Assembly (NCBI GenBank): GCA_028710275.1
Contig: JAQTUL010000002.1
Location: forward strand, 12,855-76,854
DNA: 64,000 nt
Source: Candidatus Colwellbacteria bacterium
Lineage (GTDB): Bacteria; Patescibacteriota; Minisyncoccia; UBA6257; Colwellbacteraceae
Direction of reading: 5' to 3'
Position 1 is the first letter of the stretch. Each line of letters starts with the position of its first letter. The translations under genes and the position numbers were made by a program. Under the pieces are notes generated by a model. That model did no database searches. It was not told where the DNA came from and saw nothing but the letters and a program-made list of their open reading frames with translations. Positions 5,229 through 61,995 of the stretch are shown here, in pieces.

Positions 5229-5238
5229 TGTAAAGCCA

Positions 5239-11659: not shown

Positions 11660-11686
11660 TTATAAAAATTGATATCTGTAATCATT

Positions 11687-18546: not shown

Positions 18547-18614
18547 TTTCTTTGTATATGAAACAGAATTAAAGTGATTTTATAGTATCTTTACTATAAA
18601 ATACCATCAACCAC

Positions 18615-23518: not shown

Positions 23519-24148
23519 ATGTCTACTCCACCAGAAGCTATTAGACAAGTTTCTTACCTAGAGGGTAAAACTATTTTTCAAGGAGAAAAGATCTCTCTAT
23601 CATTCTGTTTCCATACAGGGTTGTGGATTGTTAAAGTTGTGAAAGGGGAGAGGAATTTTGAGATTATCTTTGAGTCTGTAAAGGAGTTTAAATCGGCTAT
23701 CGAAAAATGCAAAGAGCTTCTTTTCGAAATCGGATCTTTCAACGAAACTGAGGGACTATCAGTCAGACAAACAAGATTGGATCTATGGAAAAATAAGTGG
23801 AAAGAGATGGTTGAAGACGGTTGGAGTTTTATCGACAATCCCGATTTCAAGGAAGAGGAGTCTTATACTACAGATGAGTTTATGACTGTTCTCGGGCGAT
23901 TGATGGATGATCTCTCATTCAGTTGTGAACTCTGTGTTTCAACAATCGGAGGGTTTAGAGATTTCTTTCATTGTGAAAAATGTCTTCTCGAAGGAGGGGG
24001 ATTTGTTGTGTGTCGTACATGTATGGAGGAGAATGAGGATGGATACAAAGAGCATCAAGATGATTTCCCTGGACACAATATGGAGAGTCCAGACAAAGGA
24101 AATATTCTAGCACTTTATATCTCTTTGGCAAAAGAGTGTATCGAATAA
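23519..24148 (+). CDS. hypothetical protein with C-terminal Cys/His zinc-finger-like cluster
   Basis: 209 aa. ATG verified. C-terminus CELC..CEKC...CRTC. Confidence 0.45.
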   Translation: MSTPPEAIRQVSYLEGKTIFQGEKISLSFCFHTGLWIVKVVKGERNFEIIFESVKEFKSAIEKCKELLFEIGSFNETEGLSVRQTRLDLWKNKWKEMVEDGWSFIDNPDFKEEESYTTDEFMTVLGRLMDDLSFSCELCVSTIGGFRDFFHCEKCLLEGGGFVVCRTCMEENEDGYKEHQDDFPGHNMESPDKGNILALYISLAKECIE

Positions 24149-24150
24149 AA

Positions 24151-25194
24151 ATGATTTTATTCTTTTCGGATTGGAGACTATTACTTTCCACCATGGCAGC
24201 TCCTTACGTTGTTCCCATTATCTTTGAGGATTCGGATGAAGAAGAGATCAAACTTTCGACCGTGACGGTGTGTCCATACATATTCGTCAAGGGAGTGAGA
24301 AAGGGAGAGACGTGTGGGAAGAAGTGTAAGGAAAAGTACTGTAGTGTACACAAGGAGAGAAAAGGTATCGTGAAAAGTTGGAACAAGCGGGATACGATCC
24401 CACCGGAGCTTTTGAAAAAGAGTATGGTGTACGATAATGCAGTTGAAGAGATGAAGGAAGGAGTGTACGATAATGAGAGTGAAGAGCTTAACGAAGATGG
24501 GTTGACCGCGAGACAACAAAGCGCACTTGATTACGCTATGTGTCTAGAGAAGAAGATTCCATCCCCACCATCAACTGATGCGATCTGTCTCGCGAACTTC
24601 ATACAGTTCATCTGTCCGATCAGTATCAACTTTCCATCGGCGATTCTTCATAAGCTTGTCAACGACACACACGTGAGAAACGGGTTTGAGACAAAAAGAG
24701 GATTGGACAAAACAATTCGTCCAACATGGGAGAGTAAACTATTCAATACATATTACGATAAGTCTGTTCCTTTCGAGCGACCAAAGTATGGAGCGATCAA
24801 AACAAATCCTCTCAGTATGGTGAGCAACAATTCTACTATGGGATATGGTGATGCAGTGTTCATTCTGAAAGACGAGGTGAAGAGGAGATGCACAATGACT
24901 CCCGGAGACAGTTCGATTTTTGCAGCTGATAATGTATACACATTCGATCAGATTCAGGAGATGCTGATGAAACATCCTCATGTAAGGAATCACATCATGA
25001 CTTGTTATCAAGCGTACGAACGAGAGGATCACGCAGGATCAAAAGAATTTGCATCATACATTGAAGTCCAAATTCATGGTCAACTCCTATTCTCAAGTAT
25101 CGCTAAACTTGTGATCTTATCAAAGGATGAGGGACTACGGATGATCGCGACTAGATTCGGAGAGAAGAATAAGTGTGAGGTTGTTTTCCTGTAG
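24151..25194 (+). CDS. hypothetical protein with N-terminal Cys cluster; carries an in-frame copy of the dispersed repeat
   Basis: The track start 24136 is GTG. In-frame ATGs are at 24151 and 24193. CPYIFVKGVRKGETCGKKCKEKYCSVH. The repeat copy 24371-24419 encodes KSWNKRDTIPPELLKK. Confidence 0.45.
   Translation: MILFFSDWRLLLSTMAAPYVVPIIFEDSDEEEIKLSTVTVCPYIFVKGVRKGETCGKKCKEKYCSVHKERKGIVKSWNKRDTIPPELLKKSMVYDNAVEEMKEGVYDNESEELNEDGLTARQQSALDYAMCLEKKIPSPPSTDAICLANFIQFICPISINFPSAILHKLVNDTHVRNGFETKRGLDKTIRPTWESKLFNTYYDKSVPFERPKYGAIKTNPLSMVSNNSTMGYGDAVFILKDEVKRRCTMTPGDSSIFAADNVYTFDQIQEMLMKHPHVRNHIMTCYQAYEREDHAGSKEFASYIEVQIHGQLLFSSIAKLVILSKDEGLRMIATRFGEKNKCEVVFL
24371..24419. repeat. dispersed repeat copy (+ orientation) embedded in frame in CDS 24151-25194
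   Basis: tgaaaagttggaacaagcgggatacgatcccaccggagcttttgaaaa. Confidence 0.85.
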
Positions 25195-27486: not shown

Positions 27487-27681
27487 ATGATTACTAATCC
27501 CTTTCAGAAGATGATAGATCTCGAATCTCAAATATTAAAAGAGACTGCGATATTAGAGAAGATACGAGAGAAATTTTCTACATCCGTCCGTCATGTGACT
27601 CTTAACAAATATATCTATCTCTCATTATTCACCGGGTGCGTCTTTCTTTCATCTCTACTTCTTGTTGTTGTTCTCGTTTGA
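27487..27681 (+). CDS. possible small tail-anchored membrane protein
   Basis: 64 aa with a C-terminal hydrophobic helix. It lies in a repeat-rich spacer, so it is uncertain. Confidence 0.25.
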   Translation: MITNPFQKMIDLESQILKETAILEKIREKFSTSVRHVTLNKYIYLSLFTGCVFLSSLLLVVVLV

Positions 27682-27808
27682 AAAGTTGGAACAAGTGGGA
27701 TCGTATCCCACCGGAGCTTTTGAAAAGTTGGAACAAGTGGGATCGTATCCCACCGGAGCTTTTGAAAAGTTGGAACAAGTGAGGTCGTATCCCACCGGAG
27801 CTTTTGAA
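27676..27808. repeat. 3x tandem array of 42 bp unit TTTTGAAAAGTTGGAACAAGTGGGATCGTATCCCACCGGAGC (dispersed repeat family, + orientation)
   Basis: Three head-to-tail copies with one variant (gtgaggtcg). The unit carries the imperfect palindrome GTGGGATCGTATCCCAC. Minus-strand ORF 27615-27812 is a reading-frame artefact of this array. Confidence 0.9.
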
Positions 27809-27979
27809 ACAATTGATTATTGAAAAATTTGAGAATTGTAGATCAACATTATGGACACTCTCTTCTCAAATTTTTCAATAATTCCATCTAGATTGATAAC
27901 TCACTATTTAGTAAGTGATGATATCTCAAAAGTGTGCTTAAAAGTTGAAGCACATATCTCTGTGGCTCAGAGAGAGATC

Positions 27980-28040
27980 TTTGAAAAGTTGGAACAAGTG
28001 GTATACAATCCCACCGGAGCTTTTGAAAAGTTGGAACCGC
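27980..28040. repeat. dispersed repeat copy (+ orientation) inside small ORF 27851-28147
   Basis: ctttgaaaagttggaacaagtggtatacaatcccaccggagcttttgaaaagttggaacc. Confidence 0.85.
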
Positions 28041-28135
28041 TTGACTCAGTTAAAATAAAAAGTCTCAGACAAAAGATAAAATCTTTTGTAGGAATGAGGG
28101 AACTGGTTATGGATCAGGCTCTTATAGACGCTGAG

Positions 28136-28471
28136 TTATCCGTTTAATTTAGCATCGTTTAGATCTCGAACCGTAAGTGATTGAATCTTATAGAGAATCG
28201 TGAGAAATAGAATCATAACCATAACAATTGGTATGAGAATAACTGCCCATGCGATCTTCTCGTGCTTATACTTACAAAGAAAATAGATTACTGTTATAAG
28301 AACTATACCACTAATCACACCACACACATTAGATTTGATTCTGATGGATTTAGTTGTTTCATCCATACAATTACTTACGGCGGTTTTGTGACGGAGTAGG
28401 TCGAATAGATTTATGATTATCATTCCTGAATATAGAACTAGACCAATCAAAAACGGCAAACATGTGTGCAT
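28136..28471 (-). CDS. small multi-pass membrane protein
   Basis: 111 aa. ATG verified. Three hydrophobic helices. Confidence 0.4.
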   Translation of the reverse strand: MHTCLPFLIGLVLYSGMIIINLFDLLRHKTAVSNCMDETTKSIRIKSNVCGVISGIVLITVIYFLCKYKHEKIAWAVILIPIVMVMILFLTILYKIQSLTVRDLNDAKLNG

Positions 28472-39455: not shown

Positions 39456-39583
39456 TGTATAAACTATGTAAAGATATTCGGTCTTAAATCAAATTTTATG
39501 AAATCTGAGCAGCTTAGATGAGATTGGTGAATCCAACCCGGAGCTTTTAACAATAGAAAATCTATTTAAGAGAGTAGTTGTTT

Positions 39584-40014: not shown

Positions 40015-40623
40015 ATGTATAGTAAGTACCACCTGCAACTGAGTCTCATCACGATGTCTTTCGCTCCCATTCGTACCGAGATGCAATGCGAAGAGTATCT
40101 CTCTTATCTTCAAGCGTCGCAAGTCTTGAAAGTTCTTCATAAGTACTCTCAAGATCGTGATAGACGTCCACTGGACGGACGGTGTAATTCTCCTGGATGC
40201 GCCGATGGAAATGATGTGACTGAGATGATCGTTCTTTGTTTGTACAAGGGTGAGTATACATGTTTTGGATTTATCGTATCAGAAGATGGAGGATTTCGAC
40301 TGTATAATACTGATGGTTCATTTGAAGAACTCCTTCGTGAAGGAGAGAAAAGTTTGAACAAGTTTGGCGAATCAAACCCGGAGCTTTTGAAGAAAAATAA
40401 GTCAAAATACTATTACGGAGAGACACGATCCTATTATGGAGATACCTCCGTGTACAAGATGAATTTTTATGAATACGATTTTGATGCTTATCTACAGTAC
40501 CCTGATGATACCGATAACGATGTACTCAACGTACGATCTCTCATCACACAAAAAGAGACTAATGAATGGGCGCAATCTCAGACTGACGAAACGTTCAATA
40601 AGAACTCTCATATGTATGAGTAA
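40015..40623 (+). CDS. hypothetical protein; contains an in-frame copy of the dispersed repeat
   Basis: 202 aa. ATG verified. The repeat at 40351-40392 encodes NKFGESNPELLKK. Confidence 0.45.
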   Translation: MYSKYHLQLSLITMSFAPIRTEMQCEEYLSYLQASQVLKVLHKYSQDRDRRPLDGRCNSPGCADGNDVTEMIVLCLYKGEYTCFGFIVSEDGGFRLYNTDGSFEELLREGEKSLNKFGESNPELLKKNKSKYYYGETRSYYGDTSVYKMNFYEYDFDAYLQYPDDTDNDVLNVRSLITQKETNEWAQSQTDETFNKNSHMYE

Positions 40624-40644: not shown

Positions 40645-41514
40645 TTATTTATCATAAGTCTTCTCAACTAGTCGTTTATCAAATTCGTTACCCATCGATT
40701 TATTTTCATTATATAGATTACTATACTGTTCTAACAATTCACTCTCGTCGTCGCTGATTTCTGCTAACTCAGCACATTTGATCTTTTTAAACTCCTTCAA
40801 TTTTGTACTCATAATAGGAAGTATAGCCTCCTTCAGTTTCTTAGCTTGTATGTCAGTAACTATATTTCCTTTATCGTCGTGGTAAATGAAATTCTTCCGG
40901 TTCTTATCTGTACAACGATATGTTAGAGTACCCGATTCATCTTTGATTACATTATCAACTACCCAATCAGCTTGACCAACTCCTCCTCTTTCATAATGTT
41001 TTATAGTGTAGGTATCCTTTATAGATTCTAATCGTTCTTGGGAGAGATTGAGGGAGTTCATTGTTATATTCTTCGCTTTGATGTTTGTTGTGGTTGTTAT
41101 CGATGTTGCTTTTTCGAGTAATTTTTTACTTTGTTCTTGTGAGAAATCATGTTCTTTACTGAATAATTTGTAGTATATTTCACCCCGTTCCTTCTCTTTC
41201 TCTAATTGTATTTTAAGAGAACAATTTTCATCCTTCAATACATTTATGATTTTTTCATATGATTCCCGTACATCTTTTATCTCTTTTGTAAATTGTTCGA
41301 CTCCATACTTTTTAGGGCATATTATTTCATGGTTATCGTTGTTATGTTTACGAGTAAATTCCTTATAACAATACTGACAATTATATAAAATTGTATTAAT
41401 AGGTGTATCCACTATATCTTTTTGTTTGTTAAGACAATATTTGGTTCTAGCTTGATGCAGTTTCAAATTAGATTTTGTAGATAAATGCTGTCCGCAAAAT
41501 TCACACACAACCAT
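40645..41514 (-). CDS. paralogous-family protein (paralog of 14457-15371)
   Basis: 289 aa. The N-terminal C2H2-like finger CEFCGQHLSTKSNLKLHQARTKYC and the C-terminal domain are about 85% identical to the 14457-15371 product. Confidence 0.6.
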   Translation of the reverse strand: MVVCEFCGQHLSTKSNLKLHQARTKYCLNKQKDIVDTPINTILYNCQYCYKEFTRKHNNDNHEIICPKKYGVEQFTKEIKDVRESYEKIINVLKDENCSLKIQLEKEKERGEIYYKLFSKEHDFSQEQSKKLLEKATSITTTTNIKAKNITMNSLNLSQERLESIKDTYTIKHYERGGVGQADWVVDNVIKDESGTLTYRCTDKNRKNFIYHDDKGNIVTDIQAKKLKEAILPIMSTKLKEFKKIKCAELAEISDDESELLEQYSNLYNENKSMGNEFDKRLVEKTYDK

Positions 41515-41637
41515 GGCTGATTACTTTTTCTTACATTTCTTTAAAGTTACTTACTTAAGGAAAGTAAGTAAAAGTAAGGAATCTTCGAAATACTTCCGAA
41601 CTTATGACTTTCAGAGATCAGAGAAATCGTCTGAAAG

Positions 41638-41795
41638 TCATAACTCAAATTTATACATTAATAGAGACCGTTTTCGGATTATGACTTTCGGAGTTCAAAG
41701 GGAATCCCATTTCTAAAACTATTTGAAATTGAAAAAAGTATATCAAACTCTCTCAATATTTGTGAGAGAGGCGACCTCTCCACCGAAAAACTTTC
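41638..41795. repeat. conserved about 130 bp intergenic element with nested inverted repeats, copy B
   Basis: See the 15507-15665 entry. Confidence 0.85.
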
Positions 41796-41841
41796 TAGTT
41801 TCGGAGTTCGGAGATAGTCGTGAACTCCGAAAAACTATTTG

Positions 41842-41890
41842 ATTTTAAAAGCTTCGGTCCAATACATTGGACTACTTCGTACTTTTTAAA
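41842..41890. repeat. 45 bp AAAAGCTTCGG...CTTCGTACTTTT element (copy 2)
   Basis: See the 766-812 entry. Lies about 70 bp upstream of the PIF1 gene start. Confidence 0.75.
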
Positions 41891-41956
41891 AGACATTGAT
41901 CAATGTCTTTTAAAATTGATCCAAAAGAATAGAGATAATACTAGTACATCTTCCAA

Positions 41957-44900
41957 ATGGCTGCTGAGAAATCGATCAGTTCTTTATCAAACTCCTTCAA
42001 GGAGATAAATCTCGAGGGTAACAACGACAGTGTGATACAATCTAAATTTTTAGATCTGGTTTTTAACAAAAAGAGAAATATTTTGTTATCATCCCCTGGT
42101 GGATGTGGTAAATCGTGGCTTATTATTAACATCATAAAAAAGGAAGCTGAACAAAGAGGTCTATCAATATCATTGACGTCAACCACAGGAGTCTCTGCGT
42201 TATCAATTGGTGGAACTACAATTAATAGATGGGGGAGTATCAAATTGGGAAAGGAATCGATTATGACTATTTGTACAAGAATAAAGAATAATAAGGAGAC
42301 ATTAAAAAGATGGAATGAATGTAAAATTTTAGTTATAGATGAAATATCTATGATGGGAGTAAAAACATTTGAATTATTAGATAATGTGGGTCGAAATATA
42401 TGTGAATCAAATTTACCTTTCGGTGGCAAACAATTAATATTATCAGGTGATTTTTTACAACTACCTCCCATCGGAGATTCCTTTATTTTTAAATCTGAGA
42501 TATGGGATACTTTTAATTTCAGATTTTTCAGATTAACGACCCCGAAGCGATATCCTGATATCGATCATTTTAATATGCTCATGAATATGAGATTGGGAAA
42601 TACTTCTAAAGATGATACTAAAAAAATGTATGGTAGAGTTGACGCATATATCGATTATATTCGTAAAGGATTAGAAAAGAAGGAAAAAATTAAACCAACA
42701 AGAATTTATTCCCTTAAAAAAGATGTTGAAACATTTAACCTAGACGAACTCTCTAAATTGGAAGGTAAAACTATCGTCTATAATTCTATTGACAAGTTCT
42801 CCAAAAAATTATCTGAAAAGGAAAAATTAATCGACAAGAATGAGCGAAAAAAGGATAATATATCAGGAAAGGATGTTATGGACTGTACAGAATTTTTAGA
42901 TACAGTTGTGAATAGGCAGATACTTTTAAAACCGGGAGCACAAATAATGTTGACATATAATTTAGCCATAGATATTGGGTTAGTTAATGGGTCTAGAGGT
43001 GTAGTATTATCTTGTGATCAAGACAGTATCAATGTATTATTTAAAAATGGAATCACAACCAGAATAGGGTATAATAAATACGAATTTGACGATGGTAAGA
43101 TTCTCATGGTAAGATATCAACTTCCAATAATTCTGGCGTGGGCAACGTCGATACATAAATGTGTCGATGAAAATACATTAATAAGCACAGAGAATGGGTT
43201 GATAAGAATCAAAGATATATCAACTCATATGATGGGGAAAAATACAAATATGATTCATCCTGATAATTCTATATTACATATATCAGAAAAAATATACGGT
43301 CGCAATGGAATTAATAAAACATCTGAAATATATAAAGGGTGTGTGGAAAAATCTTTAAAAATAACAACCAAATTAGGATATAGTATTGAGGGGTCACATA
43401 AACATCCTATATTAGTTTACGATAATGGAAAAGAGGTATGGAAAACTCTTCCATTTATCAACAAGGGAGATTATATTGTATTCCGAACAGGATTGTTCTG
43501 TGGTCGAAAAGATAATATTACAACTGATATGTTTACTATTGAGCAATATAGAGAAGGAAGTAAAAAGATATACTCTATTCCTCAAACAATAGATGAAGAT
43601 ATATGTTATGTTATCGGATTATTAGTAGGGGACGGAACATATTGTTATTCTACAAACGGAGATTATAAAATAGGATATGTAACATTAGATAACGAACTAA
43701 TCAATAAATTTAAATCTGTTATGGATACCAAATTCAAAACCGATGTTAGAATTTTCGAAGATAATGGCGCCCAACGCTGTATTGTAAGTTCCAAAATGAT
43801 TAGAAACTTTTTTGAGATATTCGGTCTTTCGTATACGAAAAGAACCGAGAAAACGGTTCCATGGTGTATTCTTGAGAATACAGTGGAATGCCAAAGAAAA
43901 TTCATAAAGGGATTATTCGATACGGACGGGGGTATAAATAATTCGTGTATACATTTTACAAATACGTCAGAAAAAGTTATTGATATTACTCAAATTCTTC
44001 TACTCAACAATGGTATTATATCTTCTAAAAGAGTTCTCAGAGAAGCAACCGATAAATGGAGTAAAGTATTTAGAATTCAGATATGTGGAATAAATGCTCG
44101 AAAATATATGTCTACAATTGGATTTTTCTGTTTACGTAAACAGAAACAAGGTATAAAACAGTACGGTAAAGACCCATCGATACAATTGATCCCAAAAACT
44201 AATATATGCAGTATTCCCGATTCTTATACTATTACGAAAACTATTAAAGATCAGCTTACAACATCAAAAAGAAATGATTCATCATTTCATAGTTTCATCT
44301 ATAAACGTGTAGGAAGAGGTGATCTCAATTCGACTATATGTTACGATCAGTTACCATATTTAATTCAAGAGTGTAAAAATAGAAATATTAAATTAGACCC
44401 TAAAATCCAAGAGTGGGTAAATAATGGAATATTTTTTGATAGAGTCGATTCAATTGAAGAAGGTTTGTGTCAGATGTATGATATCGCAGTTCCGGAAGAT
44501 CATACATTTATAGCGAACGGGATTGTAAATCATAACTGTCAAGGAGCGACCCTTGATTATGCTATCATGGATCTTGGATCATCTATCTTCGCTCCGGGAA
44601 TGGCGTATGTCGCCCTTTCTCGTGTCAGAACTCTTGATGGTCTACTATTGAGTAGCTTTGTCCCAAAGAAGATCATCGCGGATCCAGAGGCTCTAGAATT
44701 TGAGAGAATGATTGAAGCTCAAGAAAAGGATGAGGATATCGATTACGAGATCGAGAAAGGAGGTGGAATGCCTCAAGAGGAGGGGCGCCCGAATAAACAA
44801 GTGAAACAACAAGAGATTACTGTTCTTCGAGGAACAATGTGTGGTGAGACCATGATGGTTGATAAGATTCCAGGAGTAGACAAACACATTGTCGCATTCA

Positions 44901-45112
44901 TTATGGCAGATTGTCCAGAGATCTACGAGATTATGGATCCTGATATGTGGAAGAAACTCAAGGGATTAGAAGCACCATTGAAAGTTGATAATGAGACACT
45001 GTATAGTAAGCTCTTAGAACTTCTGGAGTTGGAGAGCGGAGAAACTGGAGACGAAGATGATAACGAACCTGGTGGATTGATAGACTGTGAGGAGGATGTG
45101 TTAGAGTTGTAG
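41957..45112 (+). CDS. PIF1-like SF1 DNA helicase interrupted by an intein
   Basis: Walker A SSPGGCGKSW, LVIDEISMMG, LILSGDFLQLPPI. The motif ATSIHK is split from CQGATLDYAIMDLG...MAYVALSRVRTLDGLLL by a 459 aa Hint+LAGLIDADG insert. Confidence 0.88.
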   Translation: MAAEKSISSLSNSFKEINLEGNNDSVIQSKFLDLVFNKKRNILLSSPGGCGKSWLIINIIKKEAEQRGLSISLTSTTGVSALSIGGTTINRWGSIKLGKESIMTICTRIKNNKETLKRWNECKILVIDEISMMGVKTFELLDNVGRNICESNLPFGGKQLILSGDFLQLPPIGDSFIFKSEIWDTFNFRFFRLTTPKRYPDIDHFNMLMNMRLGNTSKDDTKKMYGRVDAYIDYIRKGLEKKEKIKPTRIYSLKKDVETFNLDELSKLEGKTIVYNSIDKFSKKLSEKEKLIDKNERKKDNISGKDVMDCTEFLDTVVNRQILLKPGAQIMLTYNLAIDIGLVNGSRGVVLSCDQDSINVLFKNGITTRIGYNKYEFDDGKILMVRYQLPIILAWATSIHKCVDENTLISTENGLIRIKDISTHMMGKNTNMIHPDNSILHISEKIYGRNGINKTSEIYKGCVEKSLKITTKLGYSIEGSHKHPILVYDNGKEVWKTLPFINKGDYIVFRTGLFCGRKDNITTDMFTIEQYREGSKKIYSIPQTIDEDICYVIGLLVGDGTYCYSTNGDYKIGYVTLDNELINKFKSVMDTKFKTDVRIFEDNGAQRCIVSSKMIRNFFEIFGLSYTKRTEKTVPWCILENTVECQRKFIKGLFDTDGGINNSCIHFTNTSEKVIDITQILLLNNGIISSKRVLREATDKWSKVFRIQICGINARKYMSTIGFFCLRKQKQGIKQYGKDPSIQLIPKTNICSIPDSYTITKTIKDQLTTSKRNDSSFHSFIYKRVGRGDLNSTICYDQLPYLIQECKNRNIKLDPKIQEWVNNGIFFDRVDSIEEGLCQMYDIAVPEDHTFIANGIVNHNCQGATLDYAIMDLGSSIFAPGMAYVALSRVRTLDGLLLSSFVPKKIIADPEALEFERMIEAQEKDEDIDYEIEKGGGMPQEEGRPNKQVKQQEITVLRGTMCGETMMVDKIPGVDKHIVAFIMADCPEIYEIMDPDMWKKLKGLEAPLKVDNETLYSKLLELLELESGETGDEDDNEPGGLIDCEEDVLEL
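43160..44536 (+). mobile_element. intein with LAGLIDADG homing endonuclease domain, inserted in PIF1 helicase motif (IHK|C...HN|CQG)
   Basis: Starts with Cys (CVDENTLI) at codon 402 and ends with IVNHN followed by a +1 Cys. Two LAGLIDADG blocks (VIGLLVGDGTY and IKGLFDTDGGIN). Removing it restores the ATSIHK-CQGATLD helicase motif. Confidence 0.8.
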
Positions 45113-46156: not shown

Positions 46157-46231
46157 ACTTTTTAAAGTCTAGACTTTAAAAAGCTCCGTCTCGATTATCA
46201 GGATTGTTCCAACTTTTTAAAAGCTCCGTCC
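46157..46231. repeat. two partial dispersed repeat copies (- orientation) plus 26 bp perfect palindrome CTTTTTAAAGTCTAGACTTTAAAAAG in the divergent spacer
   Basis: ctttttaaagtctagactttaaaaagctccgtc ... gttccaactttttaaaagctccgtcc. Confidence 0.75.
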
Positions 46232-46236
46232 GATAT

Positions 46237-47694
46237 CTAGACCACATCAAATCCAAAGTACTTATTTACTATTGTACTGAACGTCGTGTTGAATTCATCT
46301 ACCGTCATATGGATAGGAACATATTGTTTACTGAATTTTTGGCTCCACTTTTTCACCTCTTCAACTACATAGGTTTTGGTATCTTCTTCCCACGGATCGC
46401 CTGATAATCCGTTCATAATTTTTTCTTGCATTTCTTCAGATGTTTCATCAACCACATTTTGTAAACTTGTTTTAAGAGAGATTGTAAATTCATGTTTCAT
46501 ATCAATGTATACAAGACCATCCTCAATCCCTGTAAAAACATTGAACAACCTATTGTAGTGACCGGAGAAGCAAGTACCAGACATCTCTGTCAACTCTTCA
46601 ATAAGTCTCATCCACAAGAGATTATATTCCTTGTGATTGGAGATAATAAAGACTACACGATCAAAGACATCCTTAAGAACATATTCCCCCACTGTTTCAG
46701 TCATGATTTTAACGTTATCAGTTGAAAATCTCTGCACGCTCAATTCAACTGCATTCTTATTGATCTTTACAACTTTTTGGTGTTCGTCAAAATACGATCC
46801 AGTCTGAATAGCGGATGATATTTTGTTTTTCATATCCGTGTAATTTCTCATCTTCTGATCTGATCTCTCAAAATCAGTCGAACTCTTTATCATCCACAAA
46901 AGAAATTTTGTCTTGCAGCTATCGAGTTGATGAACCGATTGAGAGTTATGATTTAATTCACCAACAACTCTCAATAACCTAATATTGTTTTCACCCCATC
47001 GATTGAACTCTCTAAACTGCTCAGTCTGAGGAAGAGTGTACAGGAAAAAATCAGCAAGATCGTTGGTTAATTTTTCATCACCTACAACCAACCCTTGTGA
47101 TATTCTACACATTTCAGGAGTGATCCAATTGTTAAGAGTATACATCTGTAGTACTGGGATCAGAAAATTGGTGACATTCAATTGGTTCTGAAAGAAGTAT
47201 GAATCCAGACCGTCTTTCAATAGTGGTTTTGATGGTGTGTGTTTAGAGATATCATGAACGCGAGACAGACCGGCTATATATTTTCTTGTTGGACGATGTA
47301 GCATTTGAACACTATTGTATATGTTATATCCTCTAGCGATAGTGTTTTTCGATACTAACTCTTCATATAATCTCTTTCCGATATTAGTGTATTCCTCTGA
47401 CATTCTAGCCATAAAGAAATTAAACCATACTTCATACTTGATCTCGTTGTTCACAGTATCGCTCAAGTTAAACCCGATCATCTCTTCCAATATAGTTTCA
47501 CCTATAGTAGTTGTGTCCAGGTATTCACAGCACTTAATACGTTGATCAAAATGAAGTGTTTTATCCTTTGCATAGGTTTCTATTTTTGAGAGAAAACTCT
47601 CCCTTGTTGTTCCGTAAGGGGTTACATGTTGATTACAGTTAACCATAAATTCGTAAGTGCTGCATAAGTCGTCTACCATCTCTACTAATATCAT
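46237..47694 (-). CDS. hypothetical protein
   Basis: 485 aa. ATG verified (MILVEMVDD). Confidence 0.55.
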   Translation of the reverse strand: MILVEMVDDLCSTYEFMVNCNQHVTPYGTTRESFLSKIETYAKDKTLHFDQRIKCCEYLDTTTIGETILEEMIGFNLSDTVNNEIKYEVWFNFFMARMSEEYTNIGKRLYEELVSKNTIARGYNIYNSVQMLHRPTRKYIAGLSRVHDISKHTPSKPLLKDGLDSYFFQNQLNVTNFLIPVLQMYTLNNWITPEMCRISQGLVVGDEKLTNDLADFFLYTLPQTEQFREFNRWGENNIRLLRVVGELNHNSQSVHQLDSCKTKFLLWMIKSSTDFERSDQKMRNYTDMKNKISSAIQTGSYFDEHQKVVKINKNAVELSVQRFSTDNVKIMTETVGEYVLKDVFDRVVFIISNHKEYNLLWMRLIEELTEMSGTCFSGHYNRLFNVFTGIEDGLVYIDMKHEFTISLKTSLQNVVDETSEEMQEKIMNGLSGDPWEEDTKTYVVEEVKKWSQKFSKQYVPIHMTVDEFNTTFSTIVNKYFGFDVV

Positions 47695-53222: not shown

Positions 53223-53418
53223 AGATATAATATACTTATATGGGCGCGCGAATGGTTTCGACTTGGTTCTTATACAGCTGACGGAGGGGTCCAATTCCCC
53301 TCGTGCCTATACACTAAAATTATTTTATCGTATGAATACGATAAAATATCTTCAATAAAAATGAATATGCCGACTGTTCTAGAGGAAATTCTACCACTCA
53401 TCGTCTCTTCCGTAAAAG

Positions 53419-56400
53419 ATGTCGATCGAATTTGAAAACGATTCTGAAGATGATATCGAATTGGATGTTGCAGTTACCGGTGCAAGAGTAGGAGATGTGA
53501 TTATCGGTCAGCAGAAGTGTACGATGAAAGCGATGCTTCGTGTGTATACATCTCCTATTTTCCCGATGAAGAAGTATCTGGATGAATTACGAGATGATGA
53601 TGAAAAGTGGGAGAGATTTCTCGCGAAGCTCTCGTCACTCTCATTCTTCGCAAACATGACTCGGGATGAGCGTGAAGAGTGGATGGATGAGAATGAGACA
53701 ACTGTAGAGTTTATTGGGGACGACCGTGAGGGAGGCGAGAAGAGTGGAAAAAGAAAAGAAACGCATATCGAGATTCTGGATGTAGGAACTTCGACATTGA
53801 CCTCTCAAGTGGAGTCAGAGGATCTGGAGGTACTCATGGAGGGTAAGGAAGAGGGATTCTATTCGGTTGAGGAGATTGAATCTCGATTCCCGAGAAAGCC
53901 GGGAAGTAATGCGCGAAAACATACTCTCTTCTTTATGAAACAGTTTTGGGTTGTGGTGACAGATTACAAGATCGTTACGTCGTTCGATGGAGTTGTATTC
54001 GATATCGAAAATGGAGAGATCAAGTCGAACTGTGAAACAGAGGATGGAAAGGAGTTGATTGTTATTGACGGAATCACAAAGCAGTACACGTTCGGAAAGA
54101 AAGATGAATGGGTGAAAAAGTCAGAACAAAAACTCGCGTTTCTCGTTTCGAAAGAGAGATTCGATCTCTCAAAGATAGATGAGATTGTAAAGGAGACATA
54201 TAAGGAGTTGTCAGACGTCGATGGCGATATGAATGATACGATCCGGAAAATTAGAACAGACTTGAGAGAATACACAGCCGGGTCGTTCAAATCTCTTATG
54301 CAGAAGATCATTCGATTCGGTCCGGATAAGGTATCACTTCTGGATGGAGAGATTGTGGATGGAGGAATAGTCATTCTCGTTGTTGTTGCGATGCTCGCAC
54401 AGAATCCAGGATCATTCGTTCCTGATATTCAGAGATATGTTACAGGACTTGAGTCTGTAGCAAAACGATTGGGGATCATCTGTGGATTCGAAGACTCGTA
54501 TACACCTCCGGAACGAGTGAATGAATTGGTGTCGTTGTTCTCTGGCGCACTTCTTGCTCAGAGAGTAAGATCATGGAAACCGAATAGACAAACTCTAAAA
54601 CTCTGGATGACAACTGCGTATAAATCGCTCAATGAGCGGAGAGCTATCGATTACGAGAAGGAGTCATCTAATCTCTCAATTACAGACTGGTGGACTCTAT
54701 GTCATAAGAAGGGATTGGATATGAAACCGTACGCTATCTCGGAGAAGTTGAGTCCGATAAAAACGTGTAGCGCGATTCTAGATACTCTTAGGTCGTTCGA
54801 GGGAGATATTGGAATGGCTCGACATATTGCATCAGTTTATCCGAAGTGTGAACTTATAGAATGTGATAGAACACATGAGGTTGTGATGCCTCTGTGTCAC
54901 GGAACAGATCAACATTGGGCTGCAGGGTTCATCTACTTCTTCACTCCGAAAACTATTCTTCAGAATAAAGGAGAATCCTCACCGTTCGATAAGATATTCA
55001 CTCGTGTGTTTCAGGAGGTGACCGGATTCAATCCTCGAAGAGATGAGATTGGAGAAGACTTTGAAGATGATGAATTTGTGAAGGAGACGCGGAGATCGCA
55101 GATGTTGTATCTAGTAGCAAAACAGAACAAACAGACAAAGAGAAAAATCCTCAAACGAGAACATTACAAGAGTAGCTATCAGTTGAACGATTCATGGTTG
55201 GCTGGAATGGTTAGTGCTATAGAGATTCCAGGAAGTCCGGCAACTATTGTGACTCTTCGTCCAGAGAATATCTATCAGCTTATCGCAATCAGAAAGCCGT
55301 CTCGTAATATGGCAGAGAACATCACTCCCGAAAGAGAGGAGTACTCGAAGAAGACTGCAAAGGAGATGTTGAAGAATGGAATAAAACTAAAGGGAACACA
55401 TCCTCCATCGGAATTTTTTAAAGGTGCATCAGTCAAACTAGTTGATGATGAGTATATTATCATTTCAGCAGATGGTATTTCGATGACATGGGAGGATGCA
55501 AGAGATATCGATATCTCTCTTCCATATCACAATGCTGTAGATAAGAATATAGAGAATTCTATTTCTCAGTGGGGAGAAGGTATTGAGATCAATGCGTTTG
55601 AGAAACTTGATAAGCTCATTGCAAAAACCAACACAAAGGTAATGTACCGTGTCCTTTCGTATATCGCAAACTATAAGAAGGAGTTTGAGATGAATAGAGT
55701 TAGTCGAGATGGAAACGGAACTTATCAGAGTGTCAGTCTTAATGATGTTCGTGCTTATCAGTTCATTCTCACTCTGAGTCAACTCTTTCCTGCAGCATTA
55801 CGACCGGTTGAAAAATCGCCTCAGAAATTCCTAGTTCCAGTTGGACCATTACTGTGGAACATTGTTACAAAGATCAAGGGATTCTTGTGTAAGCCGGAGG
55901 ACGATGATGGATGGGATGAAGTAGAGATTAAGGATTCCTTAGAGAGAGTTGAGTGGACTCATCAGAAGGAGACTACAGAGGAGATGATCAGGAACTTCAA
56001 GTCGGGAACGAAAGGAAACTTCTTATGGCTGCGCGTCGGGCTTGGGAAGTGCCTCCACCCAGATACTAAAGTTTTGTTATGGGATGGGTCCATGAAACGC
56101 GCGGAAGATGTACAAGTGGGTGACAGACTTATAGGGGACGACAATACGTATAGAAATGTACTGACTACATGTACCGGTGAAGAGGAAATGTTTGAAATTT
56201 CACAAATCAAAGGTGATTCTTATAAAGTAAACAGATCTCATATTCTGTCTCTGAAGTTTTCAGGACATAAAGGATATTATTGGAGTGAGTCTTATCATAG
56301 ATATTCTGTCACTTGGTTGGATAAAGAGGAGGTGAAACGAAAAACTAAAATCTTTACGGTTAGCCAGGTATATAAAACGAAAGAGATTGCTTATGATACA

Positions 56401-58389
56401 ATGATGCAATTTCGATCTACAATTCCAGACGATGATATTATCGATATCTCTGTAAACGATTATCTCTCTCTTCCTCAAAATTTTAAGAATGAATTGAAAG
56501 GTTTTAAGGTAGGGGTTGATTTCCCTTCACAAATTGTTTTTATGGATCCTTATTTATTGGGAGTATGGCTTGGTGATGGATACTCAAATGGATCCGGATT
56601 TACTAACATAGATGAAGATTGTATTAATTCTTTCGTGAAAGAAATAGAATCTATGGGGTGTCATATCTATAGAAAAAAATCAAAGGGAGAAGATACAATT
56701 TCCTATGCTGTACGAGGTATTTATGAAAATAAAAAGAGAAAGAGAAACCATTTTCTGGATATTATAAGATACTATGGAATGTATAAAAATAAACATATCC
56801 CTAAGGACTTTTTAATTAATGATAGAGAAATTAGATTGCAGGTTTTGGCTGGATTGATAGATACTGATGGATATTATAACGATGGATGTTATGAGATAAT
56901 ACAAAAAAGAAAAGAGTTATCGGATAACATTTTGTACTTGGTTAGATCATTAGGATTTAACGCTACACAAAAAGAGGTTCAAAAAACATGTACAAATTCT
57001 ATACATGGAAGAATAACAGGTACTTATCATAGGTGTATATTCAGTGGAGAAGGAATAGATCTTATTCCTTGTAAAATTGAAAGGAAAAGAGCACCTGAAA
57101 GAATGCAGGTGAAAGATGCATTGAGTACAGGAGTTACAGTTAAGAGTATAGGGAATGGTAAATATTGTGGATTTACTATCGACGGAAATAGTAGATTTCT
57201 TCTTGGAGATTTCACGGTGACTCATAATACCTTAATCGTAATGAACTTTCTCTCGTGGTTGAAAAGTATGAAAAAACTCTCAAAGTATATTCTCTACACA
57301 CTCCCACCGTCCGCGATTGAGAGTGTTGTACATGAGATTCAGGCGTTTGGATTAGAGATCAACTATATCATTCCGCTGAAGAGTATCAAAGGTAAGAAGA
57401 TTCCGAAAGGAGTAACGGTTACTCAGGAATGTGTTCTCGTTCCGTATGCGGTGAATATCATTGCACACGACCATTTGCGGCGATGTAGCGACGAACTTCT
57501 CAGTTATGCAAGCGAGTGTACATTCCTGGTCGATGAGGTTCATAAGGGATTGAATGAGACAAAGAGAACTAGTACCCTTCTCGATATTGCTCGTCTTTCA
57601 AGAATATTTGTAGCCTTTACAGGAACACCAGTGATCGACAACAAGATCTATAAACTCATCTGGTGGTTGGAACAGATTGTTGAGTTTGAGGTCAATCTCG
57701 GAAACTTCTGGGTGAGTGCAAATTCGATGGTTGCGAGAAAGATCTCGACAGGCGTGAGAGTGATTCGAAAGGAGGTGGTAGCTAAATTCAAGGATGATGA
57801 ACTTTCCGAATACAAAAAACTTGTTCCAGTTGCAATGGGAGGAGAGAATAAGTATGCGTCGAATACAGACTTCAACGATGCGTACAAACTCTGTTGTAAC
57901 GTGACAGCGAGTAGACGAATGATTGAGGAGACAATGGCGGCGTTGGGTGAAGATAAAGGAGTCATGTTGGTCGCGCAGAATAGATCTCATCAAGATCGTT
58001 TGAAAGATATGCTTGTTGATGAGGGAGTGAAGGAGAAGGATATCTTTATCTTGACTGGAAACAATAGTATATTCTTGACGGATGAGGCTGTGAAGAAGAA
58101 GATCATTCACGATTACAAAGTTGTTATCGTTCCGATGAACAAACCTGAAGGATACACATTGACAAGACTAACAGTTATGGTAACGTGTGTCTATCCGTCT
58201 AACGAAGCAACTCGTGAACAGATCGAGGGTCGTATCAATCGTATTAGTCAGGCTGCGGAAGAGATTGAAATTATCGTGGTACACTGCGGAATTCTCACTT
58301 ATATTCTAAAGAATCATAATCAAGCAAAGAGTCTGAGTATCGCGTTGAGTGATATGGCAAAGAAACTGGAGGGTGTGAAGATTGCGTAG
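53419..58389 (+). CDS. D6/D11-like (SNF2/DExH) SF2 helicase interrupted by an intein
   Basis: The 1656 aa ORF has a Walker A split as RVGLGK|[intein]|TLIVMNF. Downstream are FLVDEVHKGLN (DExH) and QIEGRINRISQ (motif VI). The host protein is about 1263 aa without the insert. Confidence 0.75.
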   Translation: MSIEFENDSEDDIELDVAVTGARVGDVIIGQQKCTMKAMLRVYTSPIFPMKKYLDELRDDDEKWERFLAKLSSLSFFANMTRDEREEWMDENETTVEFIGDDREGGEKSGKRKETHIEILDVGTSTLTSQVESEDLEVLMEGKEEGFYSVEEIESRFPRKPGSNARKHTLFFMKQFWVVVTDYKIVTSFDGVVFDIENGEIKSNCETEDGKELIVIDGITKQYTFGKKDEWVKKSEQKLAFLVSKERFDLSKIDEIVKETYKELSDVDGDMNDTIRKIRTDLREYTAGSFKSLMQKIIRFGPDKVSLLDGEIVDGGIVILVVVAMLAQNPGSFVPDIQRYVTGLESVAKRLGIICGFEDSYTPPERVNELVSLFSGALLAQRVRSWKPNRQTLKLWMTTAYKSLNERRAIDYEKESSNLSITDWWTLCHKKGLDMKPYAISEKLSPIKTCSAILDTLRSFEGDIGMARHIASVYPKCELIECDRTHEVVMPLCHGTDQHWAAGFIYFFTPKTILQNKGESSPFDKIFTRVFQEVTGFNPRRDEIGEDFEDDEFVKETRRSQMLYLVAKQNKQTKRKILKREHYKSSYQLNDSWLAGMVSAIEIPGSPATIVTLRPENIYQLIAIRKPSRNMAENITPEREEYSKKTAKEMLKNGIKLKGTHPPSEFFKGASVKLVDDEYIIISADGISMTWEDARDIDISLPYHNAVDKNIENSISQWGEGIEINAFEKLDKLIAKTNTKVMYRVLSYIANYKKEFEMNRVSRDGNGTYQSVSLNDVRAYQFILTLSQLFPAALRPVEKSPQKFLVPVGPLLWNIVTKIKGFLCKPEDDDGWDEVEIKDSLERVEWTHQKETTEEMIRNFKSGTKGNFLWLRVGLGKCLHPDTKVLLWDGSMKRAEDVQVGDRLIGDDNTYRNVLTTCTGEEEMFEISQIKGDSYKVNRSHILSLKFSGHKGYYWSESYHRYSVTWLDKEEVKRKTKIFTVSQVYKTKEIAYDTMMQFRSTIPDDDIIDISVNDYLSLPQNFKNELKGFKVGVDFPSQIVFMDPYLLGVWLGDGYSNGSGFTNIDEDCINSFVKEIESMGCHIYRKKSKGEDTISYAVRGIYENKKRKRNHFLDIIRYYGMYKNKHIPKDFLINDREIRLQVLAGLIDTDGYYNDGCYEIIQKRKELSDNILYLVRSLGFNATQKEVQKTCTNSIHGRITGTYHRCIFSGEGIDLIPCKIERKRAPERMQVKDALSTGVTVKSIGNGKYCGFTIDGNSRFLLGDFTVTHNTLIVMNFLSWLKSMKKLSKYILYTLPPSAIESVVHEIQAFGLEINYIIPLKSIKGKKIPKGVTVTQECVLVPYAVNIIAHDHLRRCSDELLSYASECTFLVDEVHKGLNETKRTSTLLDIARLSRIFVAFTGTPVIDNKIYKLIWWLEQIVEFEVNLGNFWVSANSMVARKISTGVRVIRKEVVAKFKDDELSEYKKLVPVAMGGENKYASNTDFNDAYKLCCNVTASRRMIEETMAALGEDKGVMLVAQNRSHQDRLKDMLVDEGVKEKDIFILTGNNSIFLTDEAVKKKIIHDYKVVIVPMNKPEGYTLTRLTVMVTCVYPSNEATREQIEGRINRISQAAEEIEIIVVHCGILTYILKNHNQAKSLSIALSDMAKKLEGVKIA
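56050..57228 (+). mobile_element. intein with LAGLIDADG homing endonuclease domain inserted in helicase P-loop (GLGK|C...HN|T)
   Basis: Begins with CLHPDTKVLLWDG (Hint block A) and ends with FTVTHN followed by a +1 Thr. LAGLIDADG blocks LLGVWLGDGYSNG and LAGLIDTDGYYNDG. 393 aa. Confidence 0.8.
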
Positions 58390-58412: not shown

Positions 58413-58480
58413 TTTTGAAGAGAAGAATACACCCGTACGGTACTTTCCCTTCAAAAGCTCCGGTTTGTGATTCCAATTTT
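58413..58480. repeat. inverted pair of partial dispersed repeat cores (CTTTTGAAG ... CTTCAAAAGCTCCGG) upstream of 58489
   Basis: acttttgaagagaagaatacacccgtacggtactttcccttcaaaagctccggtttgtgattccaattttt. Confidence 0.7.
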
Positions 58481-58488
58481 TTCTCGAA

Positions 58489-58992
58489 ATGACTACCCCG
58501 AATGATATTCTCCGGATGAGAAGAAATAAGATAGTCAAGACTACGCTGTTCGACTATACTCGGATGGAGTATTTCTTCATCCACTGCAGAGATGGACCTG
58601 TGTACATCCGGAAACTTATCAATGCGCCTCCGTTCAAGAAGATTGACTGGAGTATAGAGTATACAGGAAAGAATCGAGAGATGTACACAACTGTCGGTGA
58701 GTACTTCGTGATGATGTCTGTGAAAAAGATATTCGAATCTTTCACAAGAAAGGAGATGAATGGTTGGATCAAAGTTCTCTGTATTTTGATGGAGAGAGGA
58801 TTTCTGTCGCGAGAGATTATTACACGGGTTGAGTCGTACATCTCTCAAAAGAGAATGCCTCATATGTTGAGATGTGTTGTTCGCATTTTGATGAATAAGG
58901 CTCTTCTTTTTGTGAAGAGCCTGATCAAACACTCAGTATCAGCTGAGTACTATACAGGGGTTGATGATCTGATCTCTTCATATGTTTTGTGA
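58489..58992 (+). CDS. hypothetical protein
   Basis: 167 aa. ATG verified. Confidence 0.45.
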   Translation: MTTPNDILRMRRNKIVKTTLFDYTRMEYFFIHCRDGPVYIRKLINAPPFKKIDWSIEYTGKNREMYTTVGEYFVMMSVKKIFESFTRKEMNGWIKVLCILMERGFLSREIITRVESYISQKRMPHMLRCVVRILMNKALLFVKSLIKHSVSAEYYTGVDDLISSYVL

Positions 58993-61236: not shown

Positions 61237-61995
61237 ATGAGTAAACTCATTCCCGAACGAGGATCATTCTCAAAAGCTCCGGTGGGATCGTATCCCACTT
61301 GTTCCAACTTTTCAAAAGCTCCGGTGGGATACGATCACACTTGCCTAAGTGGTTCCAACTTTTCACGTCCGGAATTCTATCCAAGTGCTCGCGCCGGGAT
61401 GGGAACCCAACAGGGATTTCTCTATTCTAGTCCAGGTGTAGATATCATCCATAATGATGATCTGGAAGAGATTGTCATCCATACACCTCCTATGAAATCT
61501 CCACCACAAGTTCGTCAGATAATCAACGATGATTCGTACTGTTCCTCAAAAGTTATGATCGGAAATGTAAAGTTCCCTCTATCTATTTTTATTATTTTAG
61601 CAACTATCTTGACAGCATTGTCTATATGTGCTATTATTATTCACGATAGATATAGCAATACCACATGTATTGGATCATACAGTGGGATTGTATTTGGTTA
61701 TGTAAAATGGTTGTATATTTATGCATGGACAAATATTGGACTTATCGGGTGTATGTGTTGGTTGTTCATTATCTCTCGGTTCTCATCAATCAAAGTAGAT
61801 TCTCTAAAACTTAATATCCTGAGACTGGGATATCTTTTTCAGTTTGCATGGTATATCGTCGGAGCTGTTCTCTACTTTATTGAGATTAATGAATCATGCT
61901 CGTCGGGTGATATTCTCTACGATTTCGGTTTGGCTCTATTTATTTGTCAAACAGTCGTGTGGTTCACTATTTTATTTCAGGACCGAACAACGTGA
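61237..61995 (+). CDS. multi-pass membrane protein; N-terminal 45 aa encoded by dispersed-repeat copies
   Basis: Four C-terminal hydrophobic helices. The N-terminus FSKAPVGSYPTCSNFSKAPVGYDHTC is the reverse-complement reading of two repeat units. The true start may be a downstream ATG. Confidence 0.5.
   Translation: MSKLIPERGSFSKAPVGSYPTCSNFSKAPVGYDHTCLSGSNFSRPEFYPSARAGMGTQQGFLYSSPGVDIIHNDDLEEIVIHTPPMKSPPQVRQIINDDSYCSSKVMIGNVKFPLSIFIILATILTALSICAIIIHDRYSNTTCIGSYSGIVFGYVKWLYIYAWTNIGLIGCMCWLFIISRFSSIKVDSLKLNILRLGYLFQFAWYIVGAVLYFIEINESCSSGDILYDFGLALFICQTVVWFTILFQDRTT
61270..61372. repeat. two dispersed repeat copies (- orientation) at the 5' end of ORF 61237-61995
   Basis: ctcaaaagctccggtgggatcgtatcccacttgttccaacttttcaaaagctccggtgggatacgatcacacttgcctaagtggttccaacttttcacg. 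Confidence 0.85.

Follow-up and report, generated by a model that had tools for sequence, protein, structure and literature searches.

To our knowledge, the regulatory DNA described so far for giant viruses comprises only short promoter words, namely the octamer AAAATTGA and AT-rich late motifs, and terminator hairpins. In Mimiviridae, palindromes at the 3' ends of transcripts direct cleavage and polyadenylation according to the 'hairpin rule' (PMC4402537). Multi-copy C2H2 zinc-finger proteins with no known function are present in Nucleocytoviricota such as Klosneuvirus, Catovirus, Indivirus, Edafosvirus, Yasminevirus, Marseillevirus LCMAC and Tupanvirus, and Pacmanvirus carries at least seven copies of a 'C2H2-type domain-containing' protein (PMC11788076). 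The literature we searched held nothing relevant on an upstream element or module of these proteins, or on gene conversion in giant-virus families. Here we analysed a stretch of 64,000 nucleotides (nt) of contig JAQTUL010000002.1 (positions 12,855 to 76,854, referred to as the window), which is filed under Candidatus Colwellbacteria bacterium and, as detailed below, comes from a Mimiviridae-like giant virus. Two genes in it, copies A and B, encode zinc-finger proteins of a single family, and each is preceded by a palindrome-rich non-coding block of ~200 nt. Found in at least four viruses and conserved almost as well as the protein, the block probably serves as a dedicated control region, of a type for which no giant-virus example has been described so far. 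We read it, at a probability of about one half, as a DNA-level cis-regulatory module of this gene family, possibly bound by the family's own dimeric zinc-finger proteins.

The initial annotation presented copy B as the second copy of a duplicated cassette, a paralog together with a structured upstream element. Both the gene and the block of copy B do match copy A, and the block is indeed structured, folding far better than its shuffles on either strand. The features of the two copies are listed below in window coordinates, with H1, H2 and H3 denoting palindromes of the block.

40645-41514, minus strand: copy B gene, 289 amino acids, locus tag PHG66_00965
40645-41100, minus strand: part coding for the C-terminal domain, common to copy A (85% nt identity) and homogenised among the paralogs of this genome
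41515-41601, minus strand: AT-rich, copy-specific spacer at the ATG, with a palindrome at 41547-41571 (TTACTTACTT/AAGTAAGTAA)
41602-41693, minus strand: H3 system, three arms of TTATGACTTTC(A/G)GA at 41602-41615, 41630-41643 (inverted) and 41679-41693
41630-41836, minus strand: whole conserved non-coding module, the block (15497-15705 in copy A)
41710-41744, minus strand: conserved unpaired stretch between the palindromes, a T-run followed by the near-invariant AAATAGTTnTA(G/A)AAA
41748-41770, minus strand: H2 palindrome, CTCTCTCA-7 nt-TGAGAGAG
41775-41836, minus strand: distal part, with the conserved TTTTTCGG(T/C)GGAGAGG at 41775-41790, H1, and the end of homology at 41836
41799-41832, minus strand: H1 palindrome, an inverted pair of the CTCCGAAA motif
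14457-15705, minus strand: copy A cassette, with the gene at 14457-15371 (304 amino acids), H3 at 15495-15563, the conserved stretch at 15578-15592, H2 at 15616-15638 and the end of homology at 15705

Like the terminators of the hairpin rule, the block contains near-perfect, AT-rich intergenic palindromes. Unlike those terminators, H1 to H3 lie 5' of a gene in head-to-head spacers, with sequence and spacing conserved across paralogs and viruses. The palindromes of copies A and B are found 100-330 nt 5' of the family ATG instead of just past a stop codon, and no gene ends there. Whereas ordinary terminator palindromes are gene-specific and come one per gene, each of the two family spacers, both of them head-to-head, holds five; the other head-to-head spacers of the window hold none or one. 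The module further differs from the regulatory DNA known so far in its length of ~200 nt, its fixed internal geometry, a selection near the level of protein, its association with one multigene family and its presence in several uncultivated viruses, and the gene it adjoins encodes a protein that looks like a dimeric binder of specific DNA sequences.

Pairwise DNA alignment of copies A and B yielded an uneven pattern of similarity. The 3' ~480 nt of the gene are 85% identical, and the encoded C-terminal domain is 91% identical at the amino acid level, with a synonymous divergence (dS) of 0.88 and a nonsynonymous divergence (dN) of 0.057. In contrast, the 5' ~400 nt are 50-58% identical with synonymous sites saturated, and the ~115 nt directly 5' of the copy B ATG (41515-41629) could not be aligned with copy A. 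Further upstream, 41630-41795 is 88% identical to 15498-15663, reaching ~95% over 41668-41795, and includes a 60-nt exact match (41722-41781 = 15590-15649) for which the chance expectation is 0 and which no shuffle reproduces. The homology picks up again in a shared 16-mer (41821-41836 = 15690-15705) and then ends. By this comparison, the two copies are mosaics that agree in the block and the C-terminal domain but diverged anciently in the N-terminal half and proximal promoter, which refines the claim of the initial annotation that gene and block are shared with copy A. A family profile search of the 64-kb window returned no third copy.

To place the block in a wider context, we added 11 family loci from three additional sources (JGI, loci L001-L008; ENA, L010; Logan, L011), giving four virus sources and 14 family genes in all; geometry and core counts use 12 copies. 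Searching with the two window spacers by blastn, we found the block upstream of 13 of the 14 genes, always in gene orientation (E = 1e-9 to 1e-31). All matches of an nhmmer profile of its core lay upstream of family genes (E = 1e-23 to 1e-40), with no orphan copy in ~155 kb, that is, the 64-kb window and ~90 kb of flanking locus DNA. The 'second copy' of the initial annotation is thus homologous to copy A, yet it belongs not to a two-copy duplication but to the standard architecture of a family of ~15 paralogs, a count that for this genome rests on protein sequences only. The internal geometry is equally regular. H2 starts 247-297 nt, and once 372 nt, upstream of the ATG, and the distance from H2 to the conserved H3 arm is 75-77 nt in all 12 copies. 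Searches of genome, viral and metagenome collections for related loci returned nothing, and the exact block pattern was absent from viral and metagenome contigs, a collection that evidently lacks the JGI sample holding the relatives.

The 94-nt core of the block has a mean identity of 75% over 66 pairs. In the best-conserved protein domain of the same genes, codon positions 1 and 2 are 82% identical and position 3 only 52%. Since the core exceeds the third positions so clearly, the block is under purifying selection about as strong as that on the protein, and not a duplication remnant. Its identity across the three other virus sources is 67-81%, with synonymous sites saturated. The block is not coding, the sole recurrent open reading frame (ORF) being one of 11 codons on the antisense strand (ATGACTTTCGGAG...TTTCTAA); we rejected it as a conserved micro-ORF, its ATG being lost in L003, L010 and L011. 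Two further candidates were dropped, namely AAATTGA within the block (41726) as a promoter, since it is not conserved in other copies, and a linkage to helicase genes, which neighbour the family only at the two window copies.

Read in gene orientation, the block begins with H1, continues with TTTTTCGGnGGA and H2, then with the T-run and conserved stretch (also written T-run/AAATAGTTnTAGAAA, T-run/AAATAGTTATAGAAA and T-run/AAATAGTT), and reaches CTCCGAAAGTCATAA/H3, TCCGAAA/TTTCGGA motifs and ~100 nt of AT-rich, copy-specific sequence. The segment 41679-41693 corresponds in this orientation to CTCCGAAAGTCATAA, a near-invariant arm. In 8 of 12 copies it is followed 17-37 nt downstream by its inverted copy, and the two form H3; copy B has a third such arm at 41602-41615. 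H2 arms measure 8-14 base pairs (bp) and H3 arms 13-26 bp, nearly all Watson-Crick. The TCCGAAA/TTTCGGA motif is specific to the family, with 55 sites in 5.0 kb of family spacers (11 per kb) compared with 0.22 per kb elsewhere, a 50-fold enrichment, and its sites occur at variable positions and in both orientations. Next to the ATG, 7 of 13 copies (L001, L003, L006, L007, L008, L010 and window 15374-15398) carry a tandem repeat with a period of exactly 10, comprising 2.2-5.6 units and placed 30-100 nt before the ATG. The repeat unit is unique to each copy, as exemplified by TAAATAAAGA, GTTAAAGTTG, TGTTGAATTC and AATCTTTACA. Elsewhere only 6 period-10 repeats were found in 154 kb, which amounts to an ~85-fold enrichment near family ATGs.

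We then considered whether the block is recognised as double-stranded DNA or as a fold. Compared with shuffles, it folds strongly both as DNA (sense, z = -6.6) and as RNA (antisense, z = -5.2). Compensatory changes, counted on 12 related sequences, are evident in H2, where 7 of 13 pairs have changed on both sides, a level attained by 1 of 500 shuffles and far above that of slid controls. Each of these changes exchanges a T:A pair for A:T, and no wobble intermediates are seen. Within the H3 arms, the inner portions likewise vary among copies yet remain complementary. Over 309 positions in palindrome arms, we counted 303 Watson-Crick pairs, 1 G-T, 1 A-C and 4 others. There is no conserved pairing in the 76-nt interval between H2 and H3, and RNAalifold recovered structure only at H2. 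CTCCGAAAGTCATAA is near-invariant even in the 4 of 12 copies that lack the opposite arm, which argues that its sequence is recognised and not only a hairpin. The best Rfam matches in the spacer had E-values of 0.12 and 0.68, at 15-16 bits against cut-offs above 50. Given the Watson-Crick-only arms, the T:A/A:T swaps, the unpaired interval and the conserved lone arm, we favour double-stranded sequence recognition at fixed spacing over an RNA fold, although a role as an RNA or DNA hairpin may also be compatible with the block data.

The product of the adjoining gene has the layout of a DNA-binding protein, with two C2H2-type fingers, a single helix of ~70 residues and a C-terminal domain of ~140 residues. 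Its parts, as seen in the family alignment and in an AlphaFold2 model of the copy B protein (mean predicted local distance difference test score, pLDDT, of 90), are the following.

C4-C7-H20-C27: zinc finger 1, C-x2-C-x12-H-x6-C (family alignment)
C46-C49-H62-C66: zinc finger 2, C-x2-C-x12-H-x3-C (family alignment)
Residues 67-136: long helix, continuing the helix of finger 2 (AlphaFold2 model)
Residues ~150-289: C-terminal domain, alpha3-beta3-alpha3 (AlphaFold2 model)

In the model the fingers show a beta-beta-alpha fold, and their ligands are conserved in at least 90% of family sequences, the last ligand being Cys, as in the C2HC variant. Ligand spacing and fold agree with those of classical C2H2 fingers (PF00096/PF13894), and a search of PDB with the family profile returned classical DNA-binding C2H2 fingers (E = 1.9e-8). 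The Pfam finger scores of copy B (23.0 bits) and copy A (17.3 bits) lie below the cut-off of 25.2, whereas relatives exceed it (P0051, 29.5; P0061, 32.1; P0188, 42). The C-terminal domain had no Pfam, PDB or PHROG match; Foldseek against PDB matched only zinc fingers, and PHROGs gave weak matches only. The protein showed no transposase or nuclease domain, and no replication-initiator or partition fold was recognised. The order of fingers followed by a long helix is that of Zif23-GCN4 (PDB 1LLM), in which two fingers are fused to a leucine zipper and the protein binds an inverted repeat as a dimer. The family profile aligns with it across fingers and helix (positions 2-97, E = 0.006), with a Foldseek probability of 0.85, and by this model the family protein should form a dimer. 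In contrast to 1LLM, which is engineered, the viral protein has an additional 140-residue domain, and its dimerisation and DNA binding are predicted.

Close relatives, defined by a C-terminal domain at >45% identity, make up only ~45 clusters among 5.8 billion and come from a few metagenomes, with ~15 in this metagenome-assembled genome (MAG) on 7 contigs, ~9 in JGI sample 3300050206 and a few in ENA and Logan assemblies. An exhaustive profile search added 3362 distant cluster representatives; looking up names for distant relatives gave none, and the full-length predicted fold matches 'C2H2-type domain-containing' Nucleocytoviricota proteins in BFVD (E down to 2.6e-11). The gene thus represents a branch, specific to its lineage, of a giant-virus family that is widespread and uncharacterised. 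The multi-copy C2H2 proteins of the viruses named above share its N-terminal fingers and multi-copy state, while the close family is confined to the ~45 clusters. At L004, the divergent upstream neighbour of the family gene (3131-4495, minus strand) encodes a 454-residue protein that shares a 93-residue stretch with the family (41% identity, E = 3e-15), and it may be a distant family paralog of different architecture.

The mosaic seen between copies A and B extends to the whole family. For N-terminal halves, the reciprocal best matches come from other viruses (P0002-P0010, 0.69; P0007-P0017, 0.69; P0009-P0025, 0.59), whereas C-terminal domains are more alike within this genome (mean identity 0.85) than between viruses (0.73), and every paralog of the MAG finds its best C-terminal match in another paralog of the same MAG. 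This combination of N-terminal orthology and within-genome C-terminal clustering indicates that the family expanded before these viruses diverged and that its 3' half has since become homogenised in each genome. Between A and B the block core reaches an identity of 0.95, yet for the JGI virus the values are 0.76 among its own copies and 0.75 across genomes, and homogenisation therefore cannot generally explain its conservation. The cassette also varies in position and orientation on a conserved gene backbone, as seen around the AAA_23 gene in the window, L005 and L010, and at L004 it sits between the DHFR-thymidylate synthase (DHFR-TS) and DEAD-helicase genes, a place where the window has none. 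We tested co-variation of the proximal repeat with the N-terminal half in one pair (copy A and L011), which gave a weak signal (local score 19 versus a median of 13, rank 10 of 66). In a separate observation, L003 carries two family genes in tandem (5001-5813 and 6136-6945), each with its own block; the cores are 97% identical and the proteins moderately similar, which looks like local homogenisation of the block.

This organisation resembles that of gene-converting families, namely variant surface glycoprotein (VSG) cassettes, with their upstream 70-bp repeats and conserved 3' ends, and var genes, with their ups sequences. Like them, the family combines a non-coding element that is conserved upstream with an N-terminal half that varies and a 3' half that is conserved and, in the virus, evolves in concert within each genome. 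Unlike in VSG and var, nothing points to expression-site switching or surface exposure, and the viral protein looks like a DNA-binding factor. The family is a clean case of region-specific concerted evolution in a giant virus, N-terminally orthologous between viruses and C-terminally homogenised in each genome.

The cis-regulatory reading is based on the observed linkage of block and family, the orientation and spacing, purifying selection, DNA-type palindromes, motif enrichment and the protein fold; from these we infer binding of the protein to the block, dimerisation of the protein and a regulatory outcome. None of 13 family genes has the early motif AAAATTGA upstream, and we thus regard them as 'non-early' genes. 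The module would be inherited with each paralog as its dedicated upstream control. It would offer several CTCCGAAA sites in both orientations, H2 and CTCCGAAAGTCATAA as palindromic sites at a fixed distance, and between them the asymmetric T-run/AAATAGTTnTAGAAA stretch. The family product, with two C2H2 fingers on a long helix and a predicted dimeric state, would be the most economical candidate binder. A dimer would suit inverted-repeat sites and could bring about auto-regulation as well as cross-regulation among paralogs, while the copy-specific, 10-bp-phased repeats, zinc finger 2 and the coiled coil might provide the individuality of each paralog. If the protein does bind its own module, these viruses would encode a transcription-factor network with paralog-specific wiring.

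Several observations count against such a module. L005, whose spacer is only 55 bp, is the sole family gene without a block, which means that at least one copy can do without it. In copy B, Tandem Repeats Finder detected no clear 10-bp tandem repeat, and only a weak CTTAC phasing is present. The gap between H3 arms varies from 17 to 37 bp, which leaves no helical phase for a simple dimer. The covarying arm extensions of L007 (GTTGAAAA/TTTTCAAC) and L008 (GTTCAAATT/AATTTGAAC) go beyond the needs of a protein half-site and are in keeping with a hairpin being under selection, or with palindromes being perfected by a mutational process. Finally, the DNA-level view covers 2 of the ~15 paralogs of this genome.

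The alternatives to a cis-regulatory module differ in what they can account for. The block could instead be transcribed and act as a structured RNA, either as a long 5' leader or as a short hairpin RNA that starts at T-run/AAATAGTTATAGAAA and ends at, or consists of, H3; the hairpin cleavage and polyadenylation machinery of Mimiviridae would then process it. Strong folding and the compensated complementarity of H2 and H3 would suit this idea, as would the H3 stems of L007, L008 and L011 (22-26 bp, loops of 17-21 nt), which resemble processed hairpin precursors, and the fact that the virus follows the hairpin rule, 38 of its 54 palindromes being intergenic. The five palindromes per family spacer also fit, although head-to-head spacers need no terminator. 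We nevertheless consider it unlikely, with a single G-T among the arm positions being unusual for RNA stems at such divergence, an H3 arm conserved without its partner in a third of the copies, no consensus pairing in the 76-nt conserved interval, no Rfam match and no conservation of the 11-codon ORF; moreover, scanning ribosomes would be impeded by a 5' leader hairpin of -25 to -40 kcal/mol. Slightly less likely still is an explanation by recombination or mobility, in which the block and the conserved 3' half provide the homology at either end of a cassette. The cassette would undergo duplication, relocation, inversion and gene conversion between sites while its middle, made up of the proximal repeats and the N-terminal half, stays diverse, with the palindromes as recombination or break hot spots. 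It draws on the pairing of N-terminal halves between viruses and clustering of C-terminal domains by genome, on the contrast between the 95% identical A/B block, the C-terminal dS and the saturated N-terminal half, and on the varying places and orientations of the cassette, including its presence at the L004 site. It is opposed by the lack of terminal inverted repeats and target-site duplications at the homology boundaries and of a transposase or nuclease domain in the protein, and by the JGI block being no more alike within than between genomes, which speaks for selection and not homogenisation. Recombination would account for the similarity of blocks and not for their constraint across viruses, and since it explains dynamics it is compatible with a cis-regulatory module. 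A miniature inverted-repeat transposable element (MITE) or other small DNA transposon was rejected on the same boundary evidence, together with the fact that every block is tied to a family gene.

In plasmids, iterons accompany rep and parC accompanies parR, and archaeal origin boxes lie beside orc1/cdc6; in each case an array of sites adjoins the gene of its binding protein. The family loci share with these systems repeats in both orientations, tandem repeats at the helical turn and an adjacent gene for a DNA-binding protein, while the protein has no homology to theirs and any such function in the virus is suggested by resemblance only. A site resembling an origin or centromere, placed beside the gene for the protein that binds it, would fit the clustered 7-mers, palindromes and copy-specific period-10 repeats in AT-rich DNA, the predicted DNA-binding product, the ~15 copies across the genome and the replication genes near some loci (helicases in the window, PolB in L002). 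We regard it as very improbable, given that no replication-initiator or partition fold was recognised, that the neighbours are inconsistent across loci, that cumulative GC skew has no turning point at copy A or copy B and that copy B lacks clear iterons. We know of no internal origins described for these viruses. A related proposal, to which we attach only slight credence, sees the ~15 cassettes as dispersed nucleoprotein sites, origin-like or genome-organising, each specified by its own paralog. Equally speculative is its division of labour, in which the palindromic module would be the common platform, and the product of the adjacent gene would recognise the copy-specific 10-bp iterons through its variable zinc finger 2 and its coiled coil. 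If true, giant viruses would thereby gain their first defined internal origin or organiser system. Least credible of all is that the block is an unselected leftover of a recent A/B duplication. The 95% A/B identity agrees with such an origin, but the presence of the block in three other virus sources at saturated synonymous divergence contradicts it, and the A/B block is far more similar than the adjoining promoter-proximal DNA and the 5' half of the gene.

The assignment of the window to a giant virus is based on its gene content and signals. Proteins of the window have their exact matches in the NCBI 'Candidatus Colwellbacteria bacterium' MAG, on a 90.6-kb contig with locus tags PHG66_xxxxx. 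The genes are of giant-virus type, including a bifunctional DHFR-TS, a TRAF/RING protein, an OGFr-like protein, several helicases and two intein-bearing genes, and JGI contigs with family relatives also encode an intein-bearing PolB, RNA polymerase subunit 2, mRNA capping enzyme and PCNA. The octamer AAAATTGA occurs 9 times in the window against 10 expected, an overall count not above chance, yet 7 of the 9 lie in spacers just 5' of plus-strand ORFs. Palindromes with arms of at least 10 bp number 54, of which 38 fall within the intergenic 14% of the window, and each gene 3' end thus has approximately one near-perfect palindrome. The pattern agrees with the hairpin rule (PMC4402537), which evidently operates in this virus. 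In view of the viral genes, AAAATTGA promoters, terminator palindromes and inteins, the window is that of a Mimiviridae-like giant virus, and the bacterial label of the MAG is a binning error, the contig being mis-binned or mislabelled. No tRNA or known RNA was found in the window (Rfam 15 at gathering thresholds, 0 matches), and a scan for bacterial-type promoters and terminators was set aside as not meaningful for this virus.

Other features of the window deserve mention. The two intein-bearing genes are 41957-45112, a PIF1 helicase with a LAGLIDADG intein, and 53419-58389, which encodes a 1656-residue protein with a Hom_end/Hint intein in a host protein that has no Pfam match. A 541-residue ORF (11669-13294) contains four or five tandem repeats of 183 nt, each one CxxC...CxxC zinc-ribbon unit, and ends C-terminally in an endonuclease-like motif (..EFHGCYWHGC..). 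The ORF is situated between the conserved AAA_23 gene and copy A, a place at which L005 and L010 have no equivalent, and it is probably a mobile endonuclease gene. A 47-nt sequence containing a palindrome flanks the small ORF 18289-18546 (18237-18283 and 18567-18613, 98% identical) and recurs at 53312-53358 with 74% identity; terminator-type hairpins appear to have been duplicated around this ORF.

On the other side of the copy B spacer, the PIF1 helicase gene starts at ATG 41957. The initial annotation noted an early-promoter-like AAAATTGA ~40 nt before this ATG and a 45-bp element in the spacer, which correspond to the following features.

41884-41915, plus strand: perfect 16+16 bp palindrome, overlapping the AAAATTGA octamer at 41912-41919
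41843-41886, plus strand: 45-bp element, one copy of a dispersed 42-nt element, with AAAAGCTyCGG, a covarying hairpin and CTnnTTCnnACTTTT

The octamer was borne out. It is exact, lies on the coding strand and ends 37 nt before the ATG, within the ~100 nt used to define a Mimiviridae early promoter, and is a credible early promoter of PIF1. Large palindromes are present on the start regions of both helicase genes, at 41884-41915 for PIF1 and at 15750-15808 for an 811-residue helicase, the latter with 17-bp arms ending at the ATG.

The 45-bp element exists as a separate element and is not part of the cassette: copy A lacks it, and it belongs to a dispersed 42-nt family that is unrelated to the cassette. 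The family pattern is AAAAGCTCCGG, a covarying hairpin stem of 5-7 bp and then CTTGTTCCAACTTTT, and the window holds at least 15 copies in both orientations. Sites were found at 765-808 (91% identical to the copy at 41843-41886), 24369-24426, 27677-27818 (three tandem copies), 27980-28037, ~39500-39546, 40340-40390, 41843-41886, 46181-46260, 58455-58500 and 61267-61343. Some copies occur in spacers, and others sit in frame within long ORFs, where three different frames or orientations are represented and the element is translated as follows.

ORF 24136-25194: ..KSWNKRDTIPPELLK..
ORF 40015-40623: ..EKSLNKFGESNPELLKK..
ORF 61237-61995: ..FSKAPVGSYPTCSNFSKAPVGYDHTC..
ORF 27851-28147: ..FEKLEQVVYNPTGAFEKLE..

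The literature we searched contained no description of such an element for giant viruses. Its behaviour recalls that of the Rickettsia palindromic elements, which insert into genes.

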